Below are positions 6,872 through 31,682 of a stretch of DNA of 64,000 bases, piece by piece; within the stretch, counting starts at the first letter, position 1, and the number at the start of each line of letters is the position of its first letter. The stretch lies in assembly GCF_003018115.1 (NCBI RefSeq), contig NZ_CP027457.1; one strand, written 5' to 3'. The notes below the pieces were generated by a model. The model was not told where the DNA came from and did no database searches. It worked only from the letters and a program-made list of their open reading frames with translations. The stretch comes from Escherichia coli (lineage in GTDB: Bacteria; Pseudomonadota; Gammaproteobacteria; Enterobacterales; Enterobacteriaceae). Both the position numbers and the translations under genes were made by a program.

Positions 6872-7080
6872 GCCTGATGCGCTACGCTCATCAGGCCTAC
6901 AAAATCTATTGCAACATGTTGAATCTTCGTGCGTTTGTAGGCCGGATAAGGCGTTCACGCCGCATCCGGCATTAGGTGCTCAATGCCTGATGCGCTACGC
7001 TTATCAGGCCTACAAAATCTATTGCAACATGTTGAATCTTCATGCGTTTGTAGGCGGATAAGGCGTTTTCGCCACATCAG
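6872..7080. repeat. tandem REP/BIME array (two ~110-bp units)
   Basis: gcctgatgcgctacgct(c/t)atcaggcctacaaaatctattgcaacatgttgaatcttc...gtaggc(c)ggataaggcg occurs twice in tandem; palindromic REP cores. Confidence 0.8.
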
Positions 7081-8742: not shown

Positions 8743-9783
8743 TCATTTATCGGAAGACGCCTGCCACAGATTCAGCTCGCCATCGGCGATATGCTGATCA
8801 ATCTGCGCCAGCTCCTCGGTGCTAAACGTCAGATTATTCAGCGCCTGCACGTTCTCCTCAAGTTGCTCCGCGCGGCTGGCACCAATCAATACCGACGTCA
8901 CGCGATCATCTTTCAGCAACCAGCTTAACGCCATTTGCGCCATTGATTGTCCACGCTGCTGTGCCATTTCATTCAATAAGCGCAGGCTGTTGAGGTTGGC
9001 TTCGGTGAGCATTTTCGGCGACAGGCCACGAACTTTATTCCCTTCACGATGCATCCGTGAATCTTCAGGAATGCCGTTGAGATATTTTCCGGTCAGCAAT
9101 CCCTGAGCCAGAGGAGTAAAGGCAATGCAGCCCACGCCGTTATTTTGCAGGGTATCCAGCAGGCCGCTTTTATCCACCCAGCGGTTTAGTAAATTGTACG
9201 AAGGTTGATGAATTAACAGCGGAATTTTCCACTCGTGCAGCAACTCGACCATTTTTTGCGTCCGCTCTGGCGAGTAAGAGGATATCCCGACATACAGCGC
9301 CTTACCGCTTTGTACCGCATGAGCCAGCGCAGAGGCGGTTTCTTCCATCGGCGTATTTTCATCGACGCGATGAGAGTAAAAGATATCGACATACTCAAGC
9401 CCCATACGCTTCAGGCTTTGGTCGAGGCTGGCGAGCAGGTATTTACGTGAACCGCCAGAGCCGTAAGGGCCGGGCCACATATCGTAGCCAGCCTTGGTAG
9501 AGATAATCAGTTCATCGCGATAAGCGGCAAAATCCTCCCGCAGCAGGCGACCAAAGTTCTCTTCTGCGCTTCCTGGAGGCGGCCCGTAATTGTTGGCTAA
9601 ATCAAAGTGCGTAATGCCCAAATCAAACGCTTTACGCAGGATCGCACGCTGTGATTCCAGCGCGTTAACGTGACCGAAATTGTGCCATAAACCGAGCGAT
9701 AACGCGGGCAGGCGTAAACCGCTTTTTCCGCAATAGCGGTATTGCATCTGCCCGTAACGTTCGGGATTCGCTAACCAGACCAT
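8743..9783 (-). CDS. gpr: aldo-keto reductase (L-glyceraldehyde 3-phosphate reductase)
   Basis: 346-aa AKR-family ORF recognised as YghZ/Gpr. Confidence 0.9.
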   Translation of the reverse strand: MVWLANPERYGQMQYRYCGKSGLRLPALSLGLWHNFGHVNALESQRAILRKAFDLGITHFDLANNYGPPPGSAEENFGRLLREDFAAYRDELIISTKAGYDMWPGPYGSGGSRKYLLASLDQSLKRMGLEYVDIFYSHRVDENTPMEETASALAHAVQSGKALYVGISSYSPERTQKMVELLHEWKIPLLIHQPSYNLLNRWVDKSGLLDTLQNNGVGCIAFTPLAQGLLTGKYLNGIPEDSRMHREGNKVRGLSPKMLTEANLNSLRLLNEMAQQRGQSMAQMALSWLLKDDRVTSVLIGASRAEQLEENVQALNNLTFSTEELAQIDQHIADGELNLWQASSDK

Positions 9784-9939: not shown

Positions 9940-10827
9940 ATGCCGCGTTTAACCGCCAAAGATTTCCCACAAGAGTTGCTGGATTACTACGACTATTACG
10001 CTCACGGGAAAATCTCGAAACGTGAGTTCCTCAACCTTGCGGCGAAGTATGCGATAGGCGGGATGACGGCATTAGCGTTGTTTGATTTGCTCAAGCCAAA
10101 TTATGCGCTGGCGACTCAGGTAGAGTTTACCGACCCGGAGATTGTTGCTGAGTACATCACGTATCCTTCGCCAAATGGTCACGGTGACGTACGTGGTTAT
10201 CTGGTGAAGCCCGCGAAGATGAGCGGCAAAACGCCAGCCGTGGTGGTGGTGCATGAGAATCGTGGACTGAATCCGTATATCGAAGATGTGGCACGGCGAG
10301 TGGCGAAGGCGGGGTATATCGCCCTGGCACCTGACGGCTTAAGTTCCGTTGGCGGTTATCCGGGTAATGATGATAAAGGTCGTGAGCTGCAACAGCAGGT
10401 TGATCCAACCAAACTGATGAATGATTTCTTTGCCGCAATTGAGTTTATGCAACGCTATCCGCAAGCGACAGGCAAAGTGGGTATTACCGGATTTTGCTAT
10501 GGCGGTGGCGTATCGAACGCGGCGGCTGTCGCGTATCCGGAACTGGCCTGCGCGGTGCCGTTTTATGGTCGTCAGGCACCCACTGCCGATGTGGCGAAGA
10601 TTGAAGCGCCTTTACTACTCCACTTCGCGGAACTGGACACCCGAATCAACGAGGGCTGGCCTGCTTACGAGGCGGCGTTGAAAGCCAATAATAAGGTTTA
10701 TGAGGCGTATATCTATCCGGGGGTTAATCACGGATTCCATAATGATTCCACGCCCCGTTATGACAAATCTGCCGCCGATCTTGCCTGGCAAAGGACACTG
10801 AAATGGTTCGATAAATATCTCTCCTGA
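9940..10827 (+). CDS. yghX: dienelactone hydrolase-family protein (intact YghX)
   Basis: ORF trimmed to ATG at 9940, preceded by GAGGAG Shine-Dalgarno; 295 aa; uninterrupted reading frame here. Confidence 0.8.
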   Translation: MPRLTAKDFPQELLDYYDYYAHGKISKREFLNLAAKYAIGGMTALALFDLLKPNYALATQVEFTDPEIVAEYITYPSPNGHGDVRGYLVKPAKMSGKTPAVVVVHENRGLNPYIEDVARRVAKAGYIALAPDGLSSVGGYPGNDDKGRELQQQVDPTKLMNDFFAAIEFMQRYPQATGKVGITGFCYGGGVSNAAAVAYPELACAVPFYGRQAPTADVAKIEAPLLLHFAELDTRINEGWPAYEAALKANNKVYEAYIYPGVNHGFHNDSTPRYDKSAADLAWQRTLKWFDKYLS

Positions 10828-10945
10828 TAGGTTTATCTCTTACGGGATTACGTCTTAAACAAGCATGAAAAAATAGCGTGCGCAAAAGTCGTTCTTTGCC
10901 TAAAATATCGCTATATATGACAATATATAGCGAATGAGGTGAACG

Positions 10946-11233
10946 ATGAATAACCATTTTGGTAAAGGCTTAATGGCGGGATTAAAAGCAACGCATGCCG
11001 ACAGTGCGGTTAATGTGACAAAATTCTGTGCCGATTATAAACGCGGTTTTGTATTAGGCTACTCACATCGGATGTACGAAAAGACCGGAGATCGCCAGCT
11101 TAGCGCCTGGGAAGCGGGTATTCTGACGCGCCGCTATGGACTGGATAAAGAGATGGTAATGGATTTCTTTCGTGAGAATAATTCCTGTTCTACGTTGCGC
11201 TTTTTTATGGCCGGTTATCGCCTCGAAAATTGA
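10946..11233 (+). CDS. yghW: DUF2623-family small protein
   Basis: 95-aa ORF at the position expected for yghW upstream of hybO. Confidence 0.7.
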
Positions 11234-11421
11234 TCAAACATACGTATTATCTTGCTTTAATTAATTACACTAATGCTTCTTCCCTTCGTTTTAGCGCCCC
11301 GCCGCAGTATCATGATATCGATAACCATAATAAATGTGTGGTAAATGGCGCATCGATCGCATTATTGATTTTGCGATTGAGGCAAAATATATGCCAGGTC
11401 TTCGCAACGGAATAACTATAA
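11234..11421 (+). promoter_or_regulatory. hyb operon promoter/control region
   Basis: 188-bp AT-rich intergenic region upstream of hybO; hyb is known to be anaerobically regulated; individual sites not resolved. Confidence 0.4.
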
Positions 11422-12540
11422 ATGACTGGAGATAACACCCTCATCCATTCTCACGGCATTAACCGTCGTGATTTCATGAAGCTTTGTGCAGCATTAGCCG
11501 CCACCATGGGGTTAAGTAGCAAAGCCGCTGCAGAGATGGCCGAATCGGTTACTAACCCGCAGCGTCCGCCAGTTATCTGGATTGGCGCGCAGGAGTGCAC
11601 CGGTTGTACGGAATCTCTGCTTCGTGCAACGCATCCAACGGTAGAAAACCTCGTACTGGAGACTATCTCTCTGGAGTATCACGAAGTGCTTTCCGCCGCC
11701 TTCGGTCATCAGGTCGAAGAGAACAAACATAACGCTCTCGAGAAGTACAAAGGGCAGTATGTGTTAGTGGTGGATGGTTCCATCCCATTAAAAGATAACG
11801 GTATTTATTGCATGGTTGCCGGTGAGCCGATTGTGGATCACATCCGCAAAGCGGCGGAAGGCGCAGCAGCCATTATCGCTATCGGTTCCTGCTCTGCGTG
11901 GGGCGGTGTTGCCGCAGCTGGAGTTAACCCAACTGGCGCAGTCAGCCTGCAAGAAGTTCTGCCAGGCAAAACCGTTATCAATATTCCGGGCTGCCCGCCG
12001 AACCCGCACAACTTCCTCGCGACCGTTGCGCACATCATCACTTACGGCAAACCGCCGAAACTGGATGACAAAAACCGTCCGACCTTCGCCTATGGCCGTC
12101 TGATTCACGAACACTGCGAACGTCGCCCGCACTTCGATGCTGGTCGTTTTGCCAAAGAGTTCGGTGATGAAGGCCACCGCGAAGGCTGGTGCCTGTACCA
12201 CCTCGGCTGTAAAGGGCCAGAAACTTACGGCAATTGCTCAACGCTGCAATTCTGCGATGTTGGCGGTGTGTGGCCGGTGGCGATTGGTCACCCGTGCTAT
12301 GGCTGTAACGAAGAAGGTATCGGCTTCCATAAAGGCATCCATCAGCTTGCCAACGTCGAAAATCAGACTCCGCGTTCACAGAAACCGGATGTTAACGCTA
12401 AAGAGGGCGGCAACGTCTCTGCAGGCGCTATTGGTTTGCTCGGCGGTGTGGTTGGGCTGGTTGCCGGTGTCAGCGTGATGGCGGTGCGTGAACTGGGTCG
12501 TCAGCAAAAGAAAGATAACGCTGACTCACGGGGAGAATAA
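11422..12540 (+). CDS. hybO: hydrogenase 2 small subunit (Tat signal)
   Basis: 372 aa; twin-arginine motif RRDFMK near N-terminus; Cys-rich FeS ligand region. Confidence 0.95.
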
Positions 12541-12542
12541 CC

Positions 12543-13529
12543 GTGAACAGACGTAATTTTATTAAAGCAGCCTCCTGCGGGGCATTGCTGACGGGCGCGC
12601 TGCCGTCTGTCAGTCATGCGGCTGCTGAAAACCGCCCGCCAATTCCGGGATCGCTGGGGATGTTGTACGACTCGACCTTGTGCGTAGGCTGCCAGGCTTG
12701 CGTCACCAAGTGTCAGGATATCAACTTCCCTGAACGTAACCCGCAAGGGGAACAGACCTGGTCGAACAACGACAAACTGTCGCCGTATACCAATAACATC
12801 ATTCAGGTGTGGACCAGCGGCACAGGGGTCAACAAAGACCAGGAGGAGAACGGCTACGCGTACATTAAGAAACAGTGTATGCACTGCGTCGATCCGAACT
12901 GTGTCTCTGTGTGCCCGGTCTCTGCGCTGAAAAAAGATCCGAAAACCGGCATTGTCCATTACGACAAAGACGTGTGCACCGGTTGCCGTTACTGCATGGT
13001 CGCCTGTCCGTACAACGTGCCGAAGTACGACTACAACAACCCGTTTGGTGCGCTGCATAAGTGCGAGCTGTGCAACCAGAAAGGTGTGGAACGTCTCGAT
13101 AAAGGCGGTCTGCCTGGCTGCGTAGAAGTGTGCCCGGCGGGCGCGGTGATTTTCGGTACGCGTGAAGAGCTGATGGCGGAGGCGAAAAAACGTCTGGCGC
13201 TGAAGCCTGGCAGCGAATACCACTATCCGCGTCAGACGCTGAAATCTGGCGACACTTACCTGCATACGGTGCCGAAATATTATCCGCATCTGTACGGCGA
13301 GAAAGAGGGCGGCGGTACTCAGGTTCTGGTACTGACGGGTGTGCCTTATGAAAATCTCGACCTGCCGAAACTGGACGATCTTTCTACCGGTGCGCGTTCC
13401 GAAAATATTCAACACACCCTGTATAAAGGCATGATGCTACCACTGGCTGTGCTGGCGGGCTTAACCGTGCTGGTTCGTCGCAACACCAAAAACGACCATC
13501 ACGACGGAGGAGACGATCATGAGTCATGA
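12543..13529 (+). CDS. hybA: hydrogenase 2 ferredoxin-type 4Fe-4S subunit
   Basis: 328 aa; GTG start; Tat motif RRNFIK; multiple CxxCxxCxxxCP ferredoxin motifs. Confidence 0.95.
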
Positions 13530-14697
13530 TCCAAAACCGCTGGGCGGCAAAATCATCAGTAAACCGGTCATGATTTTTGGACCGTTAATCGTCATCTGTA
13601 TGCTCCTGATTGTGAAGCGTCTGGTGTTCGGTCTGGGCTCTGTCTCCGACCTGAACGGCGGCTTCCCGTGGGGCGTGTGGATCGCGTTTGACCTGCTGAT
13701 TGGCACCGGCTTTGCCTGTGGCGGCTGGGCGCTGGCGTGGGCGGTATACGTCTTTAACCGTGGGCAATACCATCCGCTGGTGCGTCCGGCGCTGTTGGCG
13801 AGTCTGTTTGGTTACTCACTGGGTGGTTTGTCGATCACTATCGACGTGGGTCGCTACTGGAACCTGCCGTACTTCTACATTCCGGGTCACTTCAACGTGA
13901 ACTCGGTACTGTTCGAGACGGCGGTCTGTATGACCATCTACATCGGCGTGATGGCTCTGGAGTTTGCTCCGGCACTGTTTGAACGTCTGGGCTGGAAGGT
14001 GTCGCTACAGCGTCTGAACAAGGTGATGTTCTTCATCATCGCGCTCGGTGCGCTGCTGCCGACCATGCACCAGTCTTCAATGGGGTCGCTGATGATCTCG
14101 GCGGGCTACAAGGTGCATCCGCTGTGGCAGAGCTATGAAATGTTGCCGCTGTTCTCGCTGCTGACGGCGTTCATCATGGGCTTCTCGATTGTCATCTTTG
14201 AAGGTTCGCTAGTGCAGGCGGGTCTGCGTGGCAACGGTCCGGATGAAAAGAGCCTGTTCGTCAAGCTGACCAACACCATCAGTGTGTTGCTGGCGATTTT
14301 CATCGTGCTGCGCTTTGGCGAGCTTATCTATCGCGACAAGCTGTCGTTAGCGTTTGCCGGTGACTTCTACTCCGTGATGTTCTGGATTGAAGTCCTGCTG
14401 ATGCTCTTCCCGCTGGTCGTTCTGCGTGTGGCGAAGCTGCGTAATGATTCCCGCATGCTGTTCCTGTCAGCACTGAGCGCACTGTTAGGTTGTGCAACCT
14501 GGCGTCTGACCTATTCGCTGGTGGCATTCAACCCGGGCGGCGGTTACGCCTACTTCCCGACCTGGGAAGAACTGTTGATTTCTATTGGTTTTGTGGCTAT
14601 TGAGATTTGCGCTTACATCGTACTCATTCGTCTACTGCCGATACTTCCTCCTTTAAAACAAAACGATCATAATCGTCATGAGGCGAGCAAAGCATGA
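13519..14697 (+). CDS. hybB: hydrogenase 2 integral membrane cytochrome-type subunit
   Basis: 392-aa polytopic membrane ORF; overlaps hybA by 11 nt. Confidence 0.95.
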
Positions 14698-16397
14698 GCC
14701 AGAGAATTACTATTGATCCGGTAACCCGTATTGAGGGGCATTTACGCATCGATTGCGAAATCGAAAATGGCGTCGTTTCGAAAGCATGGGCTTCCGGTAC
14801 CATGTGGCGCGGCATGGAAGAGATCGTGAAAAACCGCGATCCGCGCGATGCATGGATGATTGTGCAACGTATCTGTGGCGTATGTACTACCACTCACGCG
14901 CTGTCTTCCGTTCGTGCGGCAGAAAGTGCGCTGAATATCGACGTTCCGGTTAACGCGCAATACATCCGTAACATCATTCTGGCTGCGCACACCACGCATG
15001 ACCATATCGTTCATTTCTATCAGCTTTCGGCGCTGGACTGGGTGGACATCACTTCTGCACTGCAAGCTGACCCAACCAAAGCCTCCGAAATGCTGAAAGG
15101 CGTTTCGACCTGGCATCTGAACAGTCCGGAAGAGTTCACCAAAGTTCAGAACAAGATCAAAGATCTGGTTGCCAGCGGTCAGTTGGGCATTTTCGCCAAC
15201 GGCTACTGGGGTCATCCGGCGATGAAACTGCCGCCGGAAGTGAACCTGATTGCGGTAGCGCACTACCTGCAGGCGCTGGAGTGCCAGCGTGACGCTAACC
15301 GCGTCGTGGCACTGCTGGGCGGTAAAACGCCGCACATTCAGAACCTGGCGGTAGGTGGGGTCGCTAACCCGATCAACCTCGACGGTCTGGGCGTGCTGAA
15401 CCTTGAGCGCCTGATGTACATCAAGTCTTTCATCGACAAGCTGAGCGACTTTGTTGAACAGGTTTATAAGGTTGATACCGCGGTTATCGCCGCGTTCTAC
15501 CCGGAATGGCTGACGCGCGGTAAAGGTGCGGTGAACTACCTGAGCGTGCCGGAATTCCCGACCGACAGCAAAAACGGCAGCTTCCTGTTCCCGGGCGGCT
15601 ACATTGAGAATGCGGATCTGTCCTCGTATCGTCCGATCACTTCTCATTCCGATGAATACCTGATCAAAGGCATTCAGGAAAGCGCGAAGCACTCCTGGTA
15701 TAAAGACGAAGCGCCGCAGGCACCGTGGGAAGGTACCACCATTCCGGCTTACGACGGTTGGTCTGACGACGGTAAATATTCCTGGGTGAAATCGCCGACT
15801 TTCTACGGCAAAACGGTAGAAGTGGGTCCGCTGGCTAATATGCTGGTGAAACTGGCGGCAGGTCGCGAATCTACCCAGAACAAACTGAATGAAATCGTTG
15901 CGATTTATCAGAAACTGACTGGCAACACGCTGGAAGTGGCACAGCTGCACTCCACGCTGGGCCGTATTATTGGTCGTACCGTTCACTGCTGTGAATTGCA
16001 GGATATCCTGCAAAACCAATACAGTGCACTGATCACCAATATCGGCAAAGGCGATCACACCACCTTTGTGAAGCCGAACATTCCGGCAACGGGTGAGTTC
16101 AAAGGTGTTGGCTTCCTCGAAGCGCCGCGCGGTATGCTCTCTCACTGGATGGTTATTAAAGACGGTATCATCAGCAACTACCAGGCGGTTGTTCCATCAA
16201 CCTGGAACTCTGGTCCGCGTAACTTCAATGATGACGTCGGTCCTTACGAGCAGTCGCTGGTGGGTACACCGGTTGCCGATCCGAATAAACCGCTGGAAGT
16301 GGTGCGTACCATTCACTCCTTCGACCCGTGCATGGCCTGTGCGGTACACGTAGTGGATGCTGACGGCAACGAAGTGGTTTCAGTGAAGGTTCTGTAA
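14694..16397 (+). CDS. hybC: hydrogenase 2 large [NiFe] subunit
   Basis: 567 aa; N-terminal RICGVCTTTH and C-terminal DPCMACAVH Ni-Fe ligand motifs. Confidence 0.96.
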   Translation: MSQRITIDPVTRIEGHLRIDCEIENGVVSKAWASGTMWRGMEEIVKNRDPRDAWMIVQRICGVCTTTHALSSVRAAESALNIDVPVNAQYIRNIILAAHTTHDHIVHFYQLSALDWVDITSALQADPTKASEMLKGVSTWHLNSPEEFTKVQNKIKDLVASGQLGIFANGYWGHPAMKLPPEVNLIAVAHYLQALECQRDANRVVALLGGKTPHIQNLAVGGVANPINLDGLGVLNLERLMYIKSFIDKLSDFVEQVYKVDTAVIAAFYPEWLTRGKGAVNYLSVPEFPTDSKNGSFLFPGGYIENADLSSYRPITSHSDEYLIKGIQESAKHSWYKDEAPQAPWEGTTIPAYDGWSDDGKYSWVKSPTFYGKTVEVGPLANMLVKLAAGRESTQNKLNEIVAIYQKLTGNTLEVAQLHSTLGRIIGRTVHCCELQDILQNQYSALITNIGKGDHTTFVKPNIPATGEFKGVGFLEAPRGMLSHWMVIKDGIISNYQAVVPSTWNSGPRNFNDDVGPYEQSLVGTPVADPNKPLEVVRTIHSFDPCMACAVHVVDADGNEVVSVKVL

Positions 16398-16891
16398 TGC
16401 GTATTTTAGTCTTAGGGGTCGGCAATATTTTGCTGACCGATGAAGCCATCGGTGTGCGGATTGTCGAAGCGTTAGAGCAACGATACATTCTGCCGGATTA
16501 TGTTGAGATCCTCGATGGCGGCACGGCGGGAATGGAGCTGCTTGGCGACATGGCAAATCGCGATCATCTGATTATTGCGGATGCCATTGTGTCGAAGAAG
16601 AGCGCGCCGGGAACGATGATGATCCTGCGGGATGAAGAAGTTCCGGCGTTGTTTACCAACAAAATCTCTCCGCATCAGCTTGGCCTGGCCGACGTCTTGT
16701 CGGCCCTGCGCTTCACCGGCGAGTTTCCGAAAAAGCTGACCCTGGTCGGCGTAATTCCGGAATCACTGGAGCCGCACATCGGCTTGACGCCGACGGTCGA
16801 AGCGATGATTGAACCTGCGCTTGAGCAGGTTCTGGCTGCGCTGCGTGAATCTGGCGTGGAAGCTATCCCACGGGAGGCGATTCATGACTGA
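16397..16891 (+). CDS. hybD: hydrogenase 2 maturation endopeptidase
   Basis: 164 aa; start overlaps hybC stop. Confidence 0.94.
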   Translation: MRILVLGVGNILLTDEAIGVRIVEALEQRYILPDYVEILDGGTAGMELLGDMANRDHLIIADAIVSKKSAPGTMMILRDEEVPALFTNKISPHQLGLADVLSALRFTGEFPKKLTLVGVIPESLEPHIGLTPTVEAMIEPALEQVLAALRESGVEAIPREAIHD

Positions 16892-17372
16892 AGAGATAGC
16901 AGGTTTCCAGACCTCCCCGAAGGCGCAAGTACAGGCAGCGTTTGAAGAAATTGCCCGGCGTTCGATGCACGATCTCTCTTTTCTGCATCCTTCAATGCCG
17001 GTGTATGTTTCTGATTTTACGCTGTTCGAAGGTCAGTGGACGGGGTGTGTGATCACCCCGTGGATGCTGAGTGCAGTTATCTTCCCCGGCCCGGATCAAC
17101 TCTGGCCGCTGCGCAAAGTGAGTGAAAAAATTGGTCTGCAACTGCCGTATGGCACCATGACCTTTACCGTTGGCGAACTGGACGGTGTTTCGCAATACCT
17201 CTCCTGTTCGCTGATGTCACCGCTTTCGCACAGTATGTCGATTGAAGAGGGCCAACGCCTGACGGATGACTGCGCACGAATGATCCTTTCGCTGCCTGTC
17301 ACGAATCCGGATGTTCCACACGCAGGGCGTCGCGCCCTGCTGTTTGGTCGCAGGAGTGGCGAAAATGCATGA
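16884..17372 (+). CDS. hybE: hydrogenase 2-specific chaperone
   Basis: ORF trimmed to ATG at 16884 (MTEEIAGFQ...) giving 162 aa. Confidence 0.9.
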   Translation: MTEEIAGFQTSPKAQVQAAFEEIARRSMHDLSFLHPSMPVYVSDFTLFEGQWTGCVITPWMLSAVIFPGPDQLWPLRKVSEKIGLQLPYGTMTFTVGELDGVSQYLSCSLMSPLSHSMSIEEGQRLTDDCARMILSLPVTNPDVPHAGRRALLFGRRSGENA

Positions 17373-17706
17373 GTTGTCGCTTTGCCAGAGTGCCGTTGAA
17401 ATTATCCAACGGCAGGCGGAGCAGCACGATGTTAAGCGCGTCACCGCCGTGTGGCTGGAAATTGGCGCGCTCTCCTGCGTTGAGGAGAGCGCCGTCCGTT
17501 TTAGTTTTGAAATTGTCTGCCACGGAACGGTGGCGCAAGGGTGCGATTTACATATCGTCTATAAACCCGCCCAGGCCTGGTGCTGGGATTGCAGCCAGGT
17601 GGTGGAGATTCATCAGCACGATGCGCAGTGTCCGCTCTGTCACGGCGAGCGGTTGCGTGTCGATACCGGCGATTCGCTGATCGTCAAAAGTATTGAAGTT
17701 GAATAA
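17365..17706 (+). CDS. hybF: hydrogenase nickel-incorporation protein (HypA paralog)
   Basis: ORF trimmed to ATG at 17365 (MHELSLCQS...) giving 113 aa; CxxC...CxxC zinc motif. Confidence 0.92.
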   Translation: MHELSLCQSAVEIIQRQAEQHDVKRVTAVWLEIGALSCVEESAVRFSFEIVCHGTVAQGCDLHIVYKPAQAWCWDCSQVVEIHQHDAQCPLCHGERLRVDTGDSLIVKSIEVE

Positions 17707-17718
17707 CCGGAGTTAACA

Positions 17719-17967
17719 ATGTGTATTGGCGTTCCAGGCCAGGTGCTGGCTGTCGGTGAAGATATTCACCAGCTTGCGCAGGTTGAAGTATGTGGTATCA
17801 AGCGCGACGTGAATATCGCCCTGATTTGTGAAGGTAACCCTGCCGATCTGCTGGGCCAGTGGGTGCTGGTACACGTCGGATTTGCCATGAGCATCATCGA
17901 CGAAGATGAAGCCAAAGCCACATTAGACGCACTGCGCCAAATGGATTACGACATTACCAGCGCGTGA
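17719..17967 (+). CDS. hybG: hydrogenase maturation factor (HypC paralog)
   Basis: 82 aa beginning MCIGVPGQV (HypC-family N-terminal Cys). Confidence 0.93.
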
Positions 17968-17980
17968 TGATTAGCTTTCG

Positions 17981-18062
17981 TAGGTCTGATAAGACGCGGC
18001 AGCGTCGCATCAGGCATTGTGCTCGATTGCCGGATGCGGCGTGAACGCCTTATCCGGCCTGG
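17981..18062. repeat. REP element pair (BIME)
   Basis: taggtctgataagacgcggcagcgtcgcatcaggc and gccggatgcggcgtgaacgccttatccggcc palindromic units between hybG and yghU. Confidence 0.75.
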
Positions 18063-18082
18063 ATGGCTTGCTGCGACGAACG

Positions 18083-18955
18083 CTAACCCTTACCCCGACG
18101 TTTATCTTCCGTATTCGTCTCAAAATCACTGGCGTCATGGCGCTCATGCAACTGCTCGTTCAGCGGCCCGTTGGTGCGGTTAACAATACGCCCACGTTTC
18201 ACCGCCGGACGTTCGCCCACTTCTTTTGCCCAGCGTTGCACATGCTTATAACTGCCCGCATCAAGAAACTCTGCGGCATCATATACGCCGCCTAATACCA
18301 CGTTGCCAAACCACGGCCAAATCGCCATATCCGCAATGGTGTACTCATCGCCTGCAACAAACTTATGCTGCGCCAGTTGCTTATCCAGCACGTCGAGAAG
18401 GCGCTTGGCTTCCATGGTAAAGCGATTGATGGCGTACTCAATTTTCACCGGCGCGTAATGGTAAAAGTGACCAAAACCACCGCCGAGGAACGGTGCCGCG
18501 CCCTGTAACCAGAACAGCCAGTTCATCGTTTCAGTACGTTTTGCCAGATCCTGCGGCAGGAAGTAGCCAAATTTCTTCGCCAGATAAAGCAGAATCGATC
18601 CTGACTCAAACACGCGGATCGGCGGATTATGGGTATGATCGCGCAGCGCCGGGATCTTCGAATTTGGGTTCACTTCGACAAAGCCGCTGGAGAATTGATC
18701 GCCATCGCCTATGCGTATCAGCCAGGCATCGTACTCTGCACCAGTAACGCCCAGCGCCAGCAGCTCCTCAAGCATAATCGTTACTTTCTGACCGTTCGGC
18801 GTTCCCAGCGAATAAAGTTGCAATGGATGTTTGCCAACGGGCAGCGTTTTTTCATGCGTCGGACCAGAAACCGGGCGATTGATATTGGCGAACGCGCCGC
18901 CAGCGGATTTATCCCACGTCCAGACTTTCGCGGGCTGATAAGTATTGTCTGTCAT
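18083..18955 (-). CDS. yghU: glutathione S-transferase-like protein (Nu class)
   Basis: ORF trimmed to Met at 18955 (MTDNTYQPAKVWTWDK...), ~290 aa. Confidence 0.9.
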   Translation of the reverse strand: MTDNTYQPAKVWTWDKSAGGAFANINRPVSGPTHEKTLPVGKHPLQLYSLGTPNGQKVTIMLEELLALGVTGAEYDAWLIRIGDGDQFSSGFVEVNPNSKIPALRDHTHNPPIRVFESGSILLYLAKKFGYFLPQDLAKRTETMNWLFWLQGAAPFLGGGFGHFYHYAPVKIEYAINRFTMEAKRLLDVLDKQLAQHKFVAGDEYTIADMAIWPWFGNVVLGGVYDAAEFLDAGSYKHVQRWAKEVGERPAVKRGRIVNRTNGPLNEQLHERHDASDFETNTEDKRRGKG

Positions 18956-19159
18956 AGTGAGTTGCCTTCTGAGTGGTAGTGTTGAAGCAGTGTAGCAGGT
19001 CACTTGCTGTACAGAATGTGAATTTTTTAACCCTTTGCGCCAGCCGCTGCGATGAGGTGTATGATTAGTCTGACCTCTGTCCGGTTAATGTCGCTGAGCA
19101 GGTAATCAGAGCACAACAATTACGCCAACTGCTTAGGTTGTATTGTTAAAGGTAAAGTG

Positions 19160-24469: not shown

Positions 24470-25228
24470 ATGGATGCACTACAAACACAAACTGTTATTA
24501 GTACAACCGCGCCACAGCCCAACTACATTCCGGGGCTGATTGCGGTGGTCGGGTGTGATGGCACCGGTAAATCCACACTGACCACCGACCTAGTGAAATC
24601 GCTGCAACAACACTGGCAAACCGAGCGGCGCTATCTGGGGCTGCTCTCCGGCGAAGACGGCGACAAAATCAAACGATTGCCGTTGGTTGGCGTCTGGCTG
24701 GAACGGCGACTGGCGGCCAAATCCTCGAAAACCCAAAGCATGAAAACCAAATCTCCGGCGCTATGGGCGGCGGTGATTATGTACTGCTTCTCGCTGCGAA
24801 GAATGGCGAATCTACGCAAGGTTCAGCGACTGGCGCAAAGTGGCGTTCTGGTGGTCAGCGATCGCTTCCCGCAGGCTGAAATTTCGGGCTTTTATTATGA
24901 CGGACCGGGGATTGGCGTCGAACGTGCGACCGGGAAAATCAGCATGTTTCTGGCGCAGCGCGAACGGCGTTTATACCAACAAATGGCGCAATATCGCCCG
25001 GAATTAATTATTCGCCTGGGCATTGATATTGAGACTGCCATCTCCCGCAAGCCTGACCATGACTATGCCGAGCTGCAGGACAAAATCGGCGTCATGTCGA
25101 CGATTGGCTATAACGGCACAAAAATTCTTGAGATTGATTCCAGAGCGCCCTACAGCGAAGTGCTGGAACAGGCACAGAAGGCGGTTTCTCTGGTTGCCAT
25201 CGCTTCTGACCGCCGAAGTTTAACTTAA
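24470..25228 (+). CDS. yghR: P-loop NTPase/kinase-like protein (YghR/S/T paralog family)
   Basis: 252 aa; Walker A GCDGTGKST; DRFPQ; SRKPDH. Confidence 0.85.
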   Translation: MDALQTQTVISTTAPQPNYIPGLIAVVGCDGTGKSTLTTDLVKSLQQHWQTERRYLGLLSGEDGDKIKRLPLVGVWLERRLAAKSSKTQSMKTKSPALWAAVIMYCFSLRRMANLRKVQRLAQSGVLVVSDRFPQAEISGFYYDGPGIGVERATGKISMFLAQRERRLYQQMAQYRPELIIRLGIDIETAISRKPDHDYAELQDKIGVMSTIGYNGTKILEIDSRAPYSEVLEQAQKAVSLVAIASDRRSLT

Positions 25229-25273
25229 GGCTGGCGGGATACTTTTTACTATCAACGATAAGGTCAGGCTGAA

Positions 25274-26623
25274 TTGGCGGGTTTTAACATCAAACATTGG
25301 TTTGCAGATGGCGCGTTTCGCACCATTATTCGCAATAGCGCCTGGTTAGGCTCCAGTAATGTCGTGAGCGCCTTGCTGGGGCTGTTGGCGCTCTCGTGTG
25401 CCGGTAAAGGGATGACGCCCGCCATGTTTGGCGTACTGGTGATTGTGCAATCGTACGCCAAGTCGATCAGCGATTTTATTAAGTTTCAGACATGGCAGCT
25501 GGTGGTTCAGTACGGAACGCCAGCCTTGACCAACAATAATCCGCAGCAATTTCGCAATGTCGTCTCATTTTCCTTCTCGCTGGATATCGTCAGCGGCGCG
25601 GTGGCGATTGTCGGCGGCATTGCCTTACTGCCATTCCTTTCCCATTCATTAGGTCTGGATGACCAAAGCTTTTGGCTGGCGGCGCTGTATTGCACGCTCA
25701 TTCCTTCAATGGCTTCCTCCACGCCGACCGGCATTCTGCGTGCGGTAGATCGCTTTGATTTGATTGCTGTACAGCAGGCGACGAAACCTTTTCTGCGCGC
25801 AGCGGGGAGCGTCGCAGCCTGGTATTTTGACTTTGGTTTTGCGGGTTTTGTTATTGCCTGGTACGTGTCGAATCTGGTTGGCGGCACCATGTACTGGTGG
25901 TTTGCCGCGCGCGAATTACGCCGCAGAAATATCCATAACGCCTTCAAATTGAATCTGTTTGAGTCTGCCCGACACATTAAAGGCGCGTGGAGTTTTGTCT
26001 GGTCAACCAACATTGCCCACTCCATCTGGTCGGCGCGTAACTCGTGCAGCACAGTGTTGGTGGGGATCGTGTTAGGACCCGCTGCCGCCGGGTTATTTAA
26101 AATCGCCATGACATTCTTCGACGCCGCCGGAACGCCAGCGGGTTTGCTGGGTAAAAGTTTTTACCCAGAGGTGATGCGTTTAGATCCGCGCACCACCAGA
26201 CCGTGGTTGTTAGGCGTGAAGTCCGGTTTACTGGCGGGCGGAATCGGTATTCTGGTGGCGCTCGCGGTGTTGATCGTCGGCAAGCCGCTCATTTCGCTGG
26301 TATTTGGCGTTAAGTATCTCGAAGCGTATGACCTGATTCAGGTGATGCTGGGCGCAATTGTGATCTCGATGCTGGGCTTCCCGCAGGAGTCATTGCTATT
26401 GATGGCGGGAAAACAGCGCGCTTTTCTCGTGGCGCAAACCATCGCCTCAATCGGCTACATCGTATTGCTGTTCATGTTCTGTCATCTGTTTGGCGTGCTG
26501 GGGGCTGCATTTGCTTACTTCGTTGGGCAATGTCTGGATGTGGTGCTCTCGTTAATTCCAACCTTAAAGGCATTTTTTCAGCGCCATTCCTTGCTTTATA
26601 ACGCAGCCGGAGAGAAATCCTGA
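25274..26623 (+). CDS. yghQ: MOP/Wzx-like polytopic membrane flippase-family protein
   Basis: 449-codon hydrophobic ORF from TTG at 25274 (true start may be the internal Met at about 25412); recognised as YghQ-like; stop overlaps the next ORF start (ATGA). Confidence 0.8.
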   Translation: MAGFNIKHWFADGAFRTIIRNSAWLGSSNVVSALLGLLALSCAGKGMTPAMFGVLVIVQSYAKSISDFIKFQTWQLVVQYGTPALTNNNPQQFRNVVSFSFSLDIVSGAVAIVGGIALLPFLSHSLGLDDQSFWLAALYCTLIPSMASSTPTGILRAVDRFDLIAVQQATKPFLRAAGSVAAWYFDFGFAGFVIAWYVSNLVGGTMYWWFAARELRRRNIHNAFKLNLFESARHIKGAWSFVWSTNIAHSIWSARNSCSTVLVGIVLGPAAAGLFKIAMTFFDAAGTPAGLLGKSFYPEVMRLDPRTTRPWLLGVKSGLLAGGIGILVALAVLIVGKPLISLVFGVKYLEAYDLIQVMLGAIVISMLGFPQESLLLMAGKQRAFLVAQTIASIGYIVLLFMFCHLFGVLGAAFAYFVGQCLDVVLSLIPTLKAFFQRHSLLYNAAGEKS

Positions 26624-27447
26624 TGATGAGAAAATATTTCCCGCTTGAGGCGAGCGAGCGTCTATTTGTTGCGATTGAAGAAGATGATGTCGTTGATGCA
26701 CAGGTTAGTTTGCCGCCGACTATTGCACTAAGTTGTACCACCGAAATCATTCATGATAATTACGCGTTATGCCTGCAATTCTGGCTCAATGGCGTTAATC
26801 GTCAGGAATTACTGCGTTTAGTTCGCAAACAAGCCAAAGGCGATGAGCTGACTGCTGATGAGCGCAAACAATTTAAATACATGCGAGCGCGCTACAAGCA
26901 CCTGCGTTTTGCGCAACGGCTGTATTTAAAGAAGCATCAGGCCGGATTTTTATTCGGCAAAACGACCGTTTTTCTGGGACGTTTTCAGGACGGATTTCGT
27001 AACGGTAAGAAAAATATTGTGTCGTATTACGGCAACCTGTTACGAATTTATTTAAGCTCTCCGGTCTGGTCGTTGGTGAACTATTCATTACGCCATAGCC
27101 AGTTAGAAAGCGTAAGCGGTTTTATTGCCTATCGGCAAAAGCAAATGCATACCCTGAAAGAGATTATTGCCAAACCGCGACTAACCGGCAGGGAATTTCA
27201 TGATGTGCGAAAAATCATCAGCCAGCAGGTTTCTTATTACGACACCTTAAGATCGCTTGATCCTGAAAATAAAGAGGCGTTACAGATTTCCCGTTTCCTC
27301 GCCGCCATTAATGGCCTGATGGGGGATAAACACGACGACATGGTAGCGGATGATATGGAAAACCGCCAGTCGTATGATGCACCGGTGGCGCTGGATAGCG
27401 ATATTCGCCAGCGCTTAGAGCTGCTGATTTCGCGTTTTCCGCTATAA
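26623..27447 (+). CDS. hypothetical protein, basic, no recognisable motif
   Basis: 274-aa ORF translationally coupled to yghQ (ATGA overlap); no signal peptide or TM segment apparent. Confidence 0.6.
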   Translation: MMRKYFPLEASERLFVAIEEDDVVDAQVSLPPTIALSCTTEIIHDNYALCLQFWLNGVNRQELLRLVRKQAKGDELTADERKQFKYMRARYKHLRFAQRLYLKKHQAGFLFGKTTVFLGRFQDGFRNGKKNIVSYYGNLLRIYLSSPVWSLVNYSLRHSQLESVSGFIAYRQKQMHTLKEIIAKPRLTGREFHDVRKIISQQVSYYDTLRSLDPENKEALQISRFLAAINGLMGDKHDDMVADDMENRQSYDAPVALDSDIRQRLELLISRFPL

Positions 27448-27455
27448 CCGGAGCA

Positions 27456-28019
27456 ATGATGTCATCTCGTTTGATTATTGCGCTGATTATCATGCTCTTA
27501 GCCCCGGGTGTGCAGGCACACAATTTCGTCACTGGCAAAACGGTTACCCCTGTTTATATTCAGGAAGGCGGCGAGCTGCTTCTGAATAGCGACGACGAAA
27601 TTCACTACCAAAAGTGGAACAGCACACAATTGGCGGGAAAAGTCCGCATTATCCAGTATATCGCCGGGCGTAAGTCGGCGAAGAAAAAGAACTCACTGTT
27701 AATTAAAGCGGTTGAAGCGGCAAACTTTCCGCAGGATCGTTTTCAGCCCACCACCATTGTGAACACCGATGATGCCATCTTTGGTACTGGCTATTTTGTT
27801 GTTGGCAAAATCGAAAAAAATAAACGCCGCTATCCGTGGGCGCAATTCGTTATCGACGGCAATGGACAGGGACGCGTTGCCTGGCGCTTGCCGGAGCAGA
27901 GTTCAACCATTCTGGTGCTGGATAAAGCCGGGCAAATTCAGTGGGCAAAGGACGGCAGCCTGACGCCGGAAGAGGTAGATCATGTCATTGCGCTGGCGCA
28001 GAAACTGATCAATGAATAA
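27456..28019 (+). CDS. secreted/periplasmic protein, YtfJ-family-like
   Basis: 187 aa; N-terminal signal peptide (MMSSRLIIALIIMLLAPGVQA/HN); resembles E. coli YtfJ as recalled (TTIVNTDDAI...YPW..F..D.NG, QWAKDG.LTPEEV). Confidence 0.6.
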   Translation: MMSSRLIIALIIMLLAPGVQAHNFVTGKTVTPVYIQEGGELLLNSDDEIHYQKWNSTQLAGKVRIIQYIAGRKSAKKKNSLLIKAVEAANFPQDRFQPTTIVNTDDAIFGTGYFVVGKIEKNKRRYPWAQFVIDGNGQGRVAWRLPEQSSTILVLDKAGQIQWAKDGSLTPEEVDHVIALAQKLINE

Positions 28020-28049
28020 AAAATTCAAAGGATTGAGGGCGTTAGTGAG

Positions 28050-29120
28050 ATGAAGCTGGTTGAACACTACATCATGCGTGGTACGCGCCGTCTGGTGCTG
28101 ATTATCGTCGGTTTTCTGATCTTTATTTTCGCCAGCTACTCCGCACAGCGTTATCTGACCGAAGCGGCAAATGGGACATTAGCTCTTGATGTTGTGCTGG
28201 ATATCGTTTTCTACAAAGTGCTGATTGCACTGGAGATGTTGTTACCTGTTGGTCTGTATGTGTCAGTTGGCGTGACGCTAGGGCAGATGTATACCGACTC
28301 GGAAATTACCGCTATCTCTGCGGCGGGGGGCAGTCCGGGACGCTTGTACAAAGCCGTTCTTTATCTGGCGATACCGCTAAGTATTTTTGTCACCCTTCTG
28401 TCGATGTATGGTCGTCCGTGGGCTTATGCGCAGATTTATCAACTGGAGCAGCAGTCGCAGTCGGAGCTGGATGTTCGCCAGTTGCGGGCAAAGAAATTTA
28501 ACACTAACGATAACGGACGAATGATCCTTTCGCAGACGGTTGATCAGGATAATAATCGCCTGACTGACGCGCTGATTTATACTTCTACTGCCAATCGAAC
28601 CCGCATTTTCCGCGCCCGTTCGGTTGATGTGGTTGACCCATCACCCGAGAAACCGACCGTTATGTTGCACAACGGCACTGCCTATCTTCTCGATCATCAG
28701 GGTCGTGACGACAACGAACAGATCTACCGTAATCTGCAATTACATCTGAATCCGCTGGATCAAAGCCCTAACGTCAAACGCAAAGCAAAATCGGTCACGG
28801 AGCTGGCGCGCTCCGCCTTTCCTGCCGATCATGCCGAACTGCAATGGCGACAAAGCCGTGGCCTGACAGCATTGTTGATGGCGCTGCTGGCCATTTCATT
28901 AAGTCGGGTAAAACCGCGGCAGGGGCGATTTTCAACGTTATTGCCACTGACGTTGCTGTTTATTGCCATTTTTTATGGCGGCGACGTCTGCCGTACGCTG
29001 GTGGCTAACGGCGCGATTCCTCTCATTCCTGGTTTGTGGTTAGTGCCCGGACTCATGCTAATGGGCCTGCTGATGCTGGTTGCACGCGACTTCACTTTGC
29101 TGCAGAAATTTTCCCGATGA
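28050..29120 (+). CDS. LptF-like permease (YjgP/YjgQ family)
   Basis: 356 aa; N-terminal TM bundle then soluble domain then C-terminal TMs; LGQMYTDSEITAISAAG matches the LptF signature region as recalled (LGKLYTESEITVMHACG). Confidence 0.75.
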   Translation: MKLVEHYIMRGTRRLVLIIVGFLIFIFASYSAQRYLTEAANGTLALDVVLDIVFYKVLIALEMLLPVGLYVSVGVTLGQMYTDSEITAISAAGGSPGRLYKAVLYLAIPLSIFVTLLSMYGRPWAYAQIYQLEQQSQSELDVRQLRAKKFNTNDNGRMILSQTVDQDNNRLTDALIYTSTANRTRIFRARSVDVVDPSPEKPTVMLHNGTAYLLDHQGRDDNEQIYRNLQLHLNPLDQSPNVKRKAKSVTELARSAFPADHAELQWRQSRGLTALLMALLAISLSRVKPRQGRFSTLLPLTLLFIAIFYGGDVCRTLVANGAIPLIPGLWLVPGLMLMGLLMLVARDFTLLQKFSR

Positions 29121-30196
29121 ATGTTTTCAGTCGCTATTTAATCCGTCATCTCTTTCTCGGTTTTGCCGCCGCCGCAGGGCTATTGCTGCCGCTTTTTACC
29201 ACCTTCAACCTGATTAACGAACTGGATGATGTCAGCCCGGGCGGTTATCGCTGGACTCAGGCGGTGCTGGTGGTGCTAATGACCTTACCGCGCACACTGG
29301 TCGAACTTTCGCCGTTTATCGCCTTATTGGGAGGGATTGTCGGCCTGGGGCAGTTATCGAAAAACAGTGAGCTTACCGCCATTCGCAGCATGGGGTTTTC
29401 TATCTTCCGTATTGCACTGGTGGCGCTGGTTGCCGGGATATTGTGGACTGTTTCGTTAGGCGCGATAGATGAGTGGGTAGCGTCGCCGTTGCAGCAACAG
29501 GCGCTGCAAATCAAATCGACCGCCACTGCGTTGGGGGAGGACGATGATATTACCGGCAATATGCTTTGGGCCAGGCGCGGTAATGAATTTGTAACGGTGA
29601 AATCGCTGAACGAGCAGGGCCAGCCGGTGGGCGTGGAGATATTTCATTATCGCGACGATCTCTCGCTCGAATCCTACATTTATGCACGCAGTGCCACCAT
29701 TGAAGACGACAAAACGTGGATCCTGCATGGTGTGAATCATAAAAAATGGCTGAATGGCAAAGAAACGCTGGAAACATTAGATAATCTTGCCTGGCAATCG
29801 GCCTTCACCAGTATGGATCTTGAAGAGTTATCAATGCCGGGCAATACTTTTTCTGTCCGTCAGCTTAATCATTACATCCATTATTTGCAGGAAACCGGGC
29901 AACCCAGCAGCGAATACCGCCTTGCACTGTGGGAAAAACTGGGGCAACCCATCCTGACCCTGGCGATGATTTTGCTGGCTGTGCCGTTTACCTTTAGTGC
30001 CCCGCGCTCGCCAGGGATGGGTAGCCGTCTCGCTGTAGGTGTCATCGTTGGCTTACTCACCTGGATCAGCTATCAAATCATGGTCAATCTGGGATTGCTA
30101 TTTGCGTTGAGCGCACCTGTTACCGCGCTCGGTTTACCGATAGCGTTTGTGCTGGTGGCGTTGAGCCTGGTGTATTGGTATGACAGACAACATTAA
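29117..30196 (+). CDS. LptG-like permease (YjgP/YjgQ family)
   Basis: 359 aa from ATG at 29117 (MNVFSRYLIRH...), overlapping upstream stop by 4 nt; NSELTAIRSMGFS resembles LptG RSELVVMQASGF. Confidence 0.75.
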   Translation: MNVFSRYLIRHLFLGFAAAAGLLLPLFTTFNLINELDDVSPGGYRWTQAVLVVLMTLPRTLVELSPFIALLGGIVGLGQLSKNSELTAIRSMGFSIFRIALVALVAGILWTVSLGAIDEWVASPLQQQALQIKSTATALGEDDDITGNMLWARRGNEFVTVKSLNEQGQPVGVEIFHYRDDLSLESYIYARSATIEDDKTWILHGVNHKKWLNGKETLETLDNLAWQSAFTSMDLEELSMPGNTFSVRQLNHYIHYLQETGQPSSEYRLALWEKLGQPILTLAMILLAVPFTFSAPRSPGMGSRLAVGVIVGLLTWISYQIMVNLGLLFALSAPVTALGLPIAFVLVALSLVYWYDRQH

Positions 30197-30230
30197 ACCC
30201 GCCGTGGCGCAACACCACAGCGGGCTCACA

Positions 30231-31403: not shown

Positions 31404-31651
31404 TATTTATTCTCCAGCCATGGAAGTAGAGTTTCCATTAATTGCGCAGGGGTTTTGACATCCAGCAGAATATTAATAGGAATGGAAATATCGAATCTGT
31501 CTTCCAGCATCATTAAGAGATCCATCACTTTGATCGACTCCAGGCCAAGATCGTTGACGAGATCGCTGTCGGGCTTAATTTCCACACCGTTTTCGACCAA
31601 ATCCTGTAAACAGGAAAGGATGTAATCCATTACTATTTCACGATTTACCAT
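31403..31651 (-). CDS. acyl carrier protein
   Basis: 82 aa, acidic; phosphopantetheine-site motif DLGLESI; shares a boundary nucleotide with the downstream synthase gene. Confidence 0.75.
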   Translation of the reverse strand: MVNREIVMDYILSCLQDLVENGVEIKPDSDLVNDLGLESIKVMDLLMMLEDRFDISIPINILLDVKTPAQLMETLLPWLENK

Positions 31652-31682
31652 AGAAACGTTAACACACCTTTAAACAAGACAA

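Follow-up and report, generated by a model that had tools for sequence, protein, structure and literature searches.

The region from 11422 to 17967 on the plus strand of the window, a 64,000-nt stretch of Escherichia coli DNA, is almost certainly the canonical and intact hybOABCDEFG operon for hydrogenase 2 (Hyd-2), a membrane-bound [NiFe] enzyme that faces the periplasm, and for its dedicated maturation proteins. Comparison of the open reading frames with the GF3-3 and K-12 MG1655 annotations showed that eight genes of the same orientation lie between yghW and yghU in the order hybO-A-B-C-D-E-F-G. This operon is already known and is ordinary, with a normal organisation that is the same as in K-12. 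A preliminary description of this DNA had listed the region mainly as a reference of normal hydrogenase 2 organisation, an assessment supported by collinearity with K-12, by the organisation being that of the species and the genus at large and by the intact motifs. Judged from its sequence, with the intact motifs and a dN/dS ratio of 0.009 as indirect support, the hydrogenase 2 encoded here is apparently functional.

Alignment of the operon to its K-12 MG1655 counterpart (b2997-b2990) revealed 72 substitutions over 6,546 nt and no insertions or deletions, an identity of 98.9%. None of the frameshifts that had been set beforehand as evidence against an intact operon was found; the 6,546 nt align without gaps and there are no internal stops. 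The two operons have the same genes, gene order, gene lengths, types of start and stop codon, junctions and 188-nt upstream region. Six of the eight Hyb proteins are identical to those of K-12, and the substitutions produce only two amino-acid changes, Q6K in HybB and N69S in HybD. We rejected the notion that these changes are damaging, as orthologues vary at both positions; at position 6 of HybB, Salmonella and Citrobacter also have lysine. The dN/dS ratio of the operon relative to K-12 is 0.009 (dS, ~0.046), which indicates continuing purifying selection. When 5,426 complete genomes of E. coli were searched, about 5,416 had the hyb region at a coverage of at least 80%, which places the operon in the core genome of the species. 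The flanks differ slightly from those of K-12 in yghX, which is intact here and a pseudogene in K-12, and in yghU, in which a 1-nt deletion relative to K-12 alters the last residues.

Each of the eight products exceeds, over essentially its whole length, both the gathering score of its Pfam family and the cut-off of its NCBIfam equivalog. The subunits of the enzyme are encoded by the first four genes, all on the plus strand. The hybO gene (11422-12540) encodes the hydrogenase 2 small subunit of 372 aa, with a Tat signal peptide and a C-terminal membrane anchor; the protein is identical to that of K-12 and matches equivalog NF007779 with 834.7 bits (cut-off, 659). Starting with a GTG codon, hybA (12543-13529) encodes a periplasmic ferredoxin-like Fe-S subunit of 328 aa (NF008134, 596.9 bits; cut-off, 263), and hybB (13519-14697) encodes the integral-membrane, NrfD-type quinone-interacting subunit of 392 aa that carries the Q6K change. 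The [NiFe] large-subunit precursor of 567 aa, again identical to the K-12 protein, is the product of hybC (14694-16397; NF007778, 1273.9 bits; cut-off, 969). The remaining four genes, also on the plus strand, are those for maturation: hybD (16397-16891) for the HybC-specific endopeptidase of 164 aa in which N69S is found; hybE (16884-17372) for the Hyd-2-specific Tat proofreading and assembly chaperone of 162 aa (PF11939), which is identical to that of K-12 and is spanned by the NF007776 alignment over positions 1-162 of 162; hybF (17365-17706) for a HypA-type nickel metallochaperone of 113 aa with an N-terminal MHE and the zinc-site motifs CWDC and CPLC; and hybG (17719-17967) for a HypC-type Fe(CN)2CO chaperone of 82 aa with an N-terminal Met-Cys (NF007721, 173.5 bits; cut-off, 115). 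HybF scores highest against a subfamily model, NF009046, and passes the HypA equivalog TIGR00100 (148.8 bits; cut-off, 88.1). The mechanical open reading frames of hybE and hybF reach further upstream and were trimmed to the annotated ATGs.

The motifs needed for export and processing are in place. Tat motifs had been described on HybO and HybA, and we located both: NRRDFMK at residues 14-20 of HybO (11461-11481, plus strand) and NRRNFIK at residues 2-8 of HybA (12546-12566, plus strand). A twin-arginine motif (S/T-R-R-x-F-L-K-like) was found neither in HybC nor in any remaining Hyb protein; hence the small subunit HybO carries the motif and the large subunit HybC does not, the arrangement expected for Tat export of the pair. 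In solved structures HybO starts only at residue 38, so that the first 37 residues, the region of the Tat signal peptide, are missing from the deposited chains. The C-terminal DPCMACAVH motif of HybC is likewise intact, as had been claimed, at residues 544-552 (16323-16349, plus strand) and is followed by a 15-residue tail, VVDADGNEVVSVKVL. Near the N terminus, residues 59-68 (RICGVCTTTH) fit RxCGxCxxxH. HybC has both of the Ni-Fe cysteine motifs (N-terminal RxCGxCxxxH and C-terminal DPCxxCxxH, with four ligands) expected of the group 1 membrane-bound [NiFe] uptake hydrogenases. The large subunit is cleaved between the His and Val that lie three and four residues past Cys-4 (PMC6769069). The mature HybC chain in PDB 6ehq comprises residues 1-552, which agrees with a 15-residue tail past His552. 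Such a tail, with hybD present, leads us to predict that this HybC is cleaved in the same manner, and Glu16, Asp62 and His93 are all present in HybD.

Other group 1 membrane-bound [NiFe] uptake hydrogenases, among them E. coli hydrogenase 1 (hyaABCDEF), have the same fold and Ni-Fe ligand motifs as this enzyme; in them, too, the small subunit is exported by Tat and a dedicated protease cuts off a C-terminal extension. Indeed, structures of the Hyd-1 large chain (e.g., PDB 3uqy) match HybC with E values of about 1e-143 to 1e-144. However, the equivalog for the Hyd-1 large subunit, NF007550, gives HybC only 507 bits against a cut-off of 1101, and HybC is therefore not the Hyd-1 subunit. The two types also differ in their partners, Hyd-2 having HybA (ferredoxin-like) and HybB (NrfD-type) where the Hyd-1 type has a cytochrome b subunit.

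The roles of the Hyb proteins in maturation and export were taken from earlier work (PMC6769069, PMC4273604, PMC9002611, PMC12134894), in which the role of HybE and the hitchhiker mechanism of Tat export (PMC4273604) and the role of HybG (PMC9002611, PMC12134894) are described. From what is known of the family, the products of this operon would act as follows. Pro-HybC would receive its Fe(CN)2CO group from HybG, acting with HypD, HypE and HypF, and its nickel from HybF, acting with HypB and SlyD. HybD would sense the bound nickel and cut past His552, with the loss of 15 residues, and mature HybC would join the Fe-S small subunit HybO, whose twin-arginine signal peptide would be shielded by HybE until assembly was done. 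The HybOC dimer would then pass through Tat with HybC as a "hitchhiker," and HybA, which has its own Tat signal, would together with HybB link the enzyme to the quinone pool.

The genes are tightly packed. The preliminary description had given overlaps of 11 nt for hybA/hybB, 4 nt for hybB/hybC, 1 nt for hybC/hybD and 8 nt for each of hybD/hybE and hybE/hybF; all five are exact, with ATGA at hybB/hybC and TAATG at hybC/hybD, and the K-12 MG1655 and GF3-3 annotations give the same relative coordinates. It had omitted the two remaining junctions, a 2-nt gap between hybO and the GTG of hybA and a 12-nt gap between hybF and hybG. With five overlaps and gaps of 2 and 12 nt, the stop and start codons of neighbouring genes overlap or abut, as is required of coupled pairs. 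We compared the hyb operons of Salmonella enterica subsp. arizonae, Citrobacter koseri, Kosakonia, Providencia rettgeri, a Budviciaceae bacterium and Aeromonas. These operons share the hybOABCDE(F) core, the Tat motifs, DPCM(A/S)CAVH and the 15-residue tail, and the geometry of the junctions is kept in all of them. Four junctions are invariant: the hybO-hybA gap of 2 nt with its GTG (conserved in seven of seven taxa), hybB/hybC as ATGA, hybC/hybD as TAATG or TGATG, and hybE/hybF as ATGCATGA, the last wherever hybF comes after hybE. Others vary in length among genera, hybA/hybB overlapping by 8 to 17 nt and hybD/hybE lying anywhere between a gap of 2 nt and an overlap of 19 nt. There are also differences around the core, Providencia and the Budviciaceae bacterium having hypBCDE downstream in place of hybG and Aeromonas having no hybF at that position and an ABC-transporter gene cluster next. 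Conservation of the junctions over seven taxa supports selection for tight juxtaposition. Nevertheless, the nearby gsp, glc and lptFG operons of the same window have many comparable overlaps, the 1- and 4-nt types included; hence the overlaps in hyb are not exceptional.

From the overlapping stop and start codons we infer that translation of the hyb genes may be coupled: the short overlaps and gaps would keep all eight genes close together on a single mRNA, and ribosomes ending one gene would probably be able to begin the next. The effect would be expected to be strongest at hybC/hybD, where a TAATG junction is combined with a weak Shine-Dalgarno sequence. A full-text literature search returned no paper testing translational coupling in hyb, and a search for a review of the whole set of Hyb proteins gave no match. 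The sole match for the term in a hyb context concerned co-expression of hypD and hybG from a plasmid. The classical signature of coupling, a start hidden in RNA structure, was rejected for this operon, as the predicted cost of opening was unremarkable; opening energies at all eight starts fell within the background of 400 random positions in the operon, with no sign of a masked start. Shine-Dalgarno sequences are strong for hybA, hybB, hybE and hybF (-7.0 to -10.3 kcal/mol, matched by no more than 0.3% of background positions) and moderate for hybC and hybG. The weakest among the internal genes is that of hybD, at -3.5 kcal/mol, which is no better than 23% of random positions. As most of the downstream genes have strong Shine-Dalgarno sequences of their own and starts that are not predicted to be masked, a dependence on upstream translation is not implied, except possibly for hybD.

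These observations bear on an alternative that we regard as possible but rather doubtful, namely, that the overlaps are by-products of genome compaction and coding constraint and that each hyb gene is initiated independently, without functionally important coupling. The strong and moderate Shine-Dalgarno sequences and the absence of any unusually buried start fit independent initiation, whereas the weak sequence ahead of hybD, which probably relies on ribosomes coming from hybC, does not. Compaction would account for the hybE/hybF overlap, in which the hybE stop, TGA, sits within the codons for His2 and Glu3 in the Met-His-Glu start of HybF, and overlaps of 1 and 4 nt occur just as often in other parts of the window, including gsp, 6 of whose 10 junctions overlap. 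However, between E. coli and Aeromonas the ATGA, TAATG/TGATG and 2-nt-gap junctions do not vary, even though protein identity falls to 53-78%. A further reading, which we offer tentatively and with which the evidence is compatible, is that two of the invariant junctions, the TAATG of hybC/hybD and the ATGCATGA of hybE/hybF, are functional devices, beyond compaction. If so, the hybC/hybD junction could restrict HybD synthesis to ribosomes that have just finished pro-HybC, thereby tying the synthesis, and perhaps the location, of a single-turnover-like protease to its substrate, while the hybE/hybF junction would be fixed by the nickel-binding Met-His-Glu with which HybF begins, as its codons provide the hybE stop. 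A very improbable explanation is that hybB, hybE or hybF truly starts further downstream and that the overlaps are artefacts of start choice. Open reading frame lists by themselves leave start codons unfixed, and the untrimmed frames of hybE and hybF illustrate this. Against such an artefact, the alignments to the NCBIfam equivalogs begin at residue 1 or 2 of every protein, the residues just past the starts are conserved among genera (PLGGK in HybB and MHE in HybF), the next in-frame start codons are 17 to 27 codons further on, and a Shine-Dalgarno sequence at proper spacing precedes each chosen ATG. There is equally little likelihood that the operon is intact yet silent or non-functional in this strain owing, for example, to defects in hyp, nik, tat or regulators outside the window. 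The 64 kb of sequence is compatible with such a state and nothing in it speaks in favour; the dN/dS ratio, the identity of the promoter region to that of K-12 and membership of the core genome argue against it.

The regions on either side of the operon were also examined. The 188 nt between yghW and hybO (11234..11421, plus strand), the hyb promoter and regulatory region, are 100% identical to those of K-12 MG1655 and GF3-3. A segment within it, at 11321-11345, matches with one mismatch what we take to be the IscR type-2-like consensus, and this is put forward as a lead only. A 61-aa open reading frame with a TTG start lies at 11230-11415, inside the promoter region, and has no annotation support. 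Downstream, an inverted REP pair (BIME) lies at 17983..18059 on the minus strand, between the convergent hybG and yghU genes. It matches Rfam naRNA4 (RF02564) on the minus strand with 84.8 bits, and its plus strand folds at -53.7 kcal/mol (z = -3.7). A canonical intrinsic terminator was not found past hybG on the plus strand, and the hyb transcript probably ends at the BIME and is stabilised by it. This REP pair is the reason for the many repeated BLAST places per genome. An Rfam scan found no regulatory RNA within the operon, the downstream REP-derived naRNA4 match being the only one.

Three candidate features inside the operon were rejected. Two are long antisense open reading frames, one of 467 aa opposite hybC (14742-16145) and one of 304 aa opposite hybA (12501-13415), which we regard as codon-aligned "shadow" frames and not as genes. 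They arise because TTA, CTA and TCA codons are rare, with 3 among the 567 codons of hybC and 3 among the 328 of hybA. The antisense run free of stops is down to 183 codons in Salmonella, and in Providencia and the Budviciaceae bacterium it shrinks further, to ~60. The third is a terminator-like hairpin in hybF (17467-17492, -23 kcal/mol), whose pairing is lost in Salmonella and Citrobacter and which was taken as a by-product of coding.

In summary, this stretch matters little past quality control, in which a normal, intact core-genome operon offers an internal standard against which annotation, gene-junction statistics and the divergence of this strain from K-12 can be gauged. Its wider interest lies in the junctions that are identical from E. 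coli to Aeromonas, which would make hyb a handy natural system for studying how stop-start overlaps may determine in what proportions an enzyme and its dedicated maturation proteins are made.

The plus strand of the window at 11422–17967 carries eight consecutive genes in the six-frame ORF list: hybO (11422–12540, 372 aa), hybA (12543–13529, 328 aa, with a GTG start), hybB (13519–14697, 392 aa), hybC (14694–16397, 567 aa), hybD (16397–16891, 164 aa), hybE (16884–17372, 162 aa), hybF (17365–17706, 113 aa) and hybG (17719–17967, 82 aa). The mechanical ORFs of hybE and hybF begin earlier, that of hybE at a TTG. All eight products passed Pfam gathering scores, and seven passed NCBIfam equivalog cut-offs over essentially their full length, which supports the chosen start codons; HybF passed the HypA equivalog TIGR00100. 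Megablast with 10000–19000 as query gave at least 80% coverage in 5,416 of 5,426 complete E. coli genomes (with a median of 16 matched places per genome for this 9-kb query because of the REP pair 3' of hybG), and the matched genomes are annotated as hybOABCDEFG throughout, with hybF labelled hypA by PGAP. This is a fully ordinary, already known operon, and the preliminary description of a normally organised hyb locus was correct, matching the annotation of K-12 MG1655 and of other complete E. coli genomes.

Alignment to K-12 had been proposed as a check for frameshifts; from the start codon of hybO through the stop of hybG, 6,546 nt align without a gap, differ by 72 substitutions (98.9% identity) and contain no internal stops in the hyb genes. 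Start and stop codon types are those of K-12, and only two amino acids differ: HybB Q6K, where Salmonella and Citrobacter also have Lys, and HybD N69S, at a position that differs among genera and is not among the metal ligands Glu16, Asp62 and His93, all three of which are present. By Nei-Gojobori counting, dS is 0.046 and dN 0.0004, and the resulting dN/dS of 0.009 is indicative of strong purifying selection. Export and maturation signals are likewise as previously described, with Tat motifs in HybO (NRRDFMK, residues 14–20) and HybA (NRRNFIK, residues 2–8) and an intact HybC processing motif (DPCMACAVH, residues 544–552) followed by 15 residues. Among solved structures, those of E. coli Hyd-2 (6ehq, 6en9 and others) match HybC and show it as a mature chain of 1–552; solved HybO chains start at residue 38 and so lack residues 1–37, the region of the Tat signal peptide. 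HybC also has the N-terminal ligand motif RICGVCTTTH (residues 59–68), HybF has an N-terminal MHE and the zinc motifs CWDC and CPLC, and HybG begins with Met-Cys. HybOC is exported by a Tat "hitchhiker" route, with a proofreading role for HybE (PMC4273604); roles of HybG and HybF have also been described (PMC9002611, PMC12134894).

Between yghW and hybO, the 188-nt intergenic region matches K-12 at every position (100% identity), so any K-12 regulatory sites there are intact. One single-mismatch match to what we take to be an IscR type-2-like consensus lies at 11321–11345, 77–101 nt upstream of the hybO ATG; this is a lead only, and about nine such matches are expected by chance across 64 kb. 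Rfam detected no RNA families within the operon. An inverted REP pair (17983–18059, matched by Rfam on the minus strand; fold of the plus strand −53.7 kcal/mol) lies 3' of hybG, between the convergent hybG and yghU, and, like a second REP/BIME element at 6940–7010 (plus strand), scores above Rfam's gathering cut-off for naRNA4 (RF02564). No canonical intrinsic terminator was found 3' of hybG on the plus strand. Within hybF, a terminator-like structure (17467–17492, plus strand; −23 kcal/mol) consists of a GC-rich hairpin of 10 bp and a T-rich stretch after it; it is identical in K-12, its pairing does not hold in Salmonella or Citrobacter, and it probably arises as a side effect of the codons for ALSCVEESA. 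Two long antisense ORFs, of 467 aa opposite hybC (14742–16145, minus strand) and 304 aa opposite hybA (12501–13415, minus strand), were rejected as codon-aligned shadow ORFs that are not conserved in other genera; they arise because hybC and hybA almost never use TTA, CTA or TCA.

The window is a collinear E. coli chromosome segment (dkgA-yqhD, metC, exbBD, gpr, yghX, yghW, hyb, yghU, gss, pitB, glc, sslE, gsp, then tRNA-Phe and speC). Its nearest relatives are O169:H41 strains and GF3-3, and the similarity is mosaic: 19001–44000 is ~100.0% identical to O169:H41 strains, while the hyb segment (10000–19000) is 99.6% identical to these and to GF3-3. Differences from GF3-3 cluster at 10185–10218 (yghX) and 15188–15387 (hybC, all synonymous), which suggests small recombination patches. 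The yghX ORF (9940–10827, plus strand), a YghX-family hydrolase in the annotation of related strains and a pseudogene in K-12 MG1655, is uninterrupted here; gpr (8743–9783, minus strand) is intact, with an internal stop in GF3-3. The 3' end of yghU (18083–18110, minus strand) has, compared with K-12, a 1-nt deletion immediately ahead of the stop, giving ...KRRGKG* (290 aa) versus ...KRQG* (288 aa); GF3-3, where yghU is annotated as intact, shares the deletion. A variable cluster between yghS and yghO (24470–34327) encodes lptF/lptG-like permeases, serine palmitoyltransferase, acyl carrier protein, an epimerase and a fatty acyl-AMP ligase, the last an uninterrupted ORF (32594–34327, minus strand) whose counterpart in F6326-C1, a nearly identical strain, has an internal stop in the annotation. 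For the 25-kb segment containing this cluster (19001–44000), just 4,041 of 5,426 genomes reached 80% coverage. Rfam also placed, on the minus strand, the sRNAs C0719 (43296–43517, 293 bits) and ES173 (1096–1159, 99 bits) and a tRNA (62565–62637), tRNA-Phe in a related genome's annotation.

The five overlaps previously reported are exact: 11 nt for hybA/hybB, 4 for hybB/hybC, 1 for hybC/hybD and 8 for both hybD/hybE and hybE/hybF, with gaps of 2 nt at hybO-hybA and 12 nt at hybF-hybG. Gene lengths and relative coordinates are equal in K-12, hence so are the overlaps, and none of the 72 substitutions falls inside them. The preliminary description took this arrangement to show extensive translational coupling; the stop-start overlap is indeed extensive, but coupling itself is not proved by the sequence, since four of the starts have strong SD duplexes of their own, opening costs are unremarkable and overlaps are locally common. 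For hybA, hybB, hybE and hybF, pairing to the 16S rRNA tail is strong (−7.0 to −10.3 kcal/mol, equalled at no more than 0.3% of 400 background positions); hybC and hybG have moderate duplexes, and only those of hybD and hybO are weak (−3.5 kcal/mol). Opening costs computed for the hyb start regions all lie inside the background range, giving no sign of starts that depend on an upstream ribosome for unmasking. The hyb pattern does not stand out within the window: six of the ten gsp junctions are overlaps, and the pairs glcD/E, lptF/G and spt/ACP share 1 or 4 nt. Searching full texts turned up no study that tests coupling within hyb. "Extensive stop-start overlap" is the better wording, with termination-reinitiation coupling likely at hybC/hybD and plausible at the other junctions.

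Conservation of the junctions bears on the same question. We retrieved hyb loci of Salmonella, Citrobacter, Kosakonia, Providencia, a Budviciaceae bacterium and Aeromonas via HybE homologues and read the junctions directly, the gene calls being automatic. Across these and the window, hybO-hybA (TAA, 2 nt, GTG), hybB/hybC (ATGA) and hybC/hybD (TAATG or TGATG) are invariant, as is ATGCATGA wherever hybE is followed by hybF, an overlap that exists because HybF starts with Met-His-Glu and its His2-Glu3 codons contain TGA, the stop of hybE. An overlap of 8–17 nt at hybA/hybB is present in all seven, and hybD/hybE stays tight throughout, ranging between a 2-nt gap and a 19-nt overlap. The junctions are kept even in Aeromonas, whose Hyb proteins are down to 53–78% identical to those of the window. 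Such conservation across seven taxa argues that the tight juxtaposition of hyb genes is under selection, as coupling predicts.
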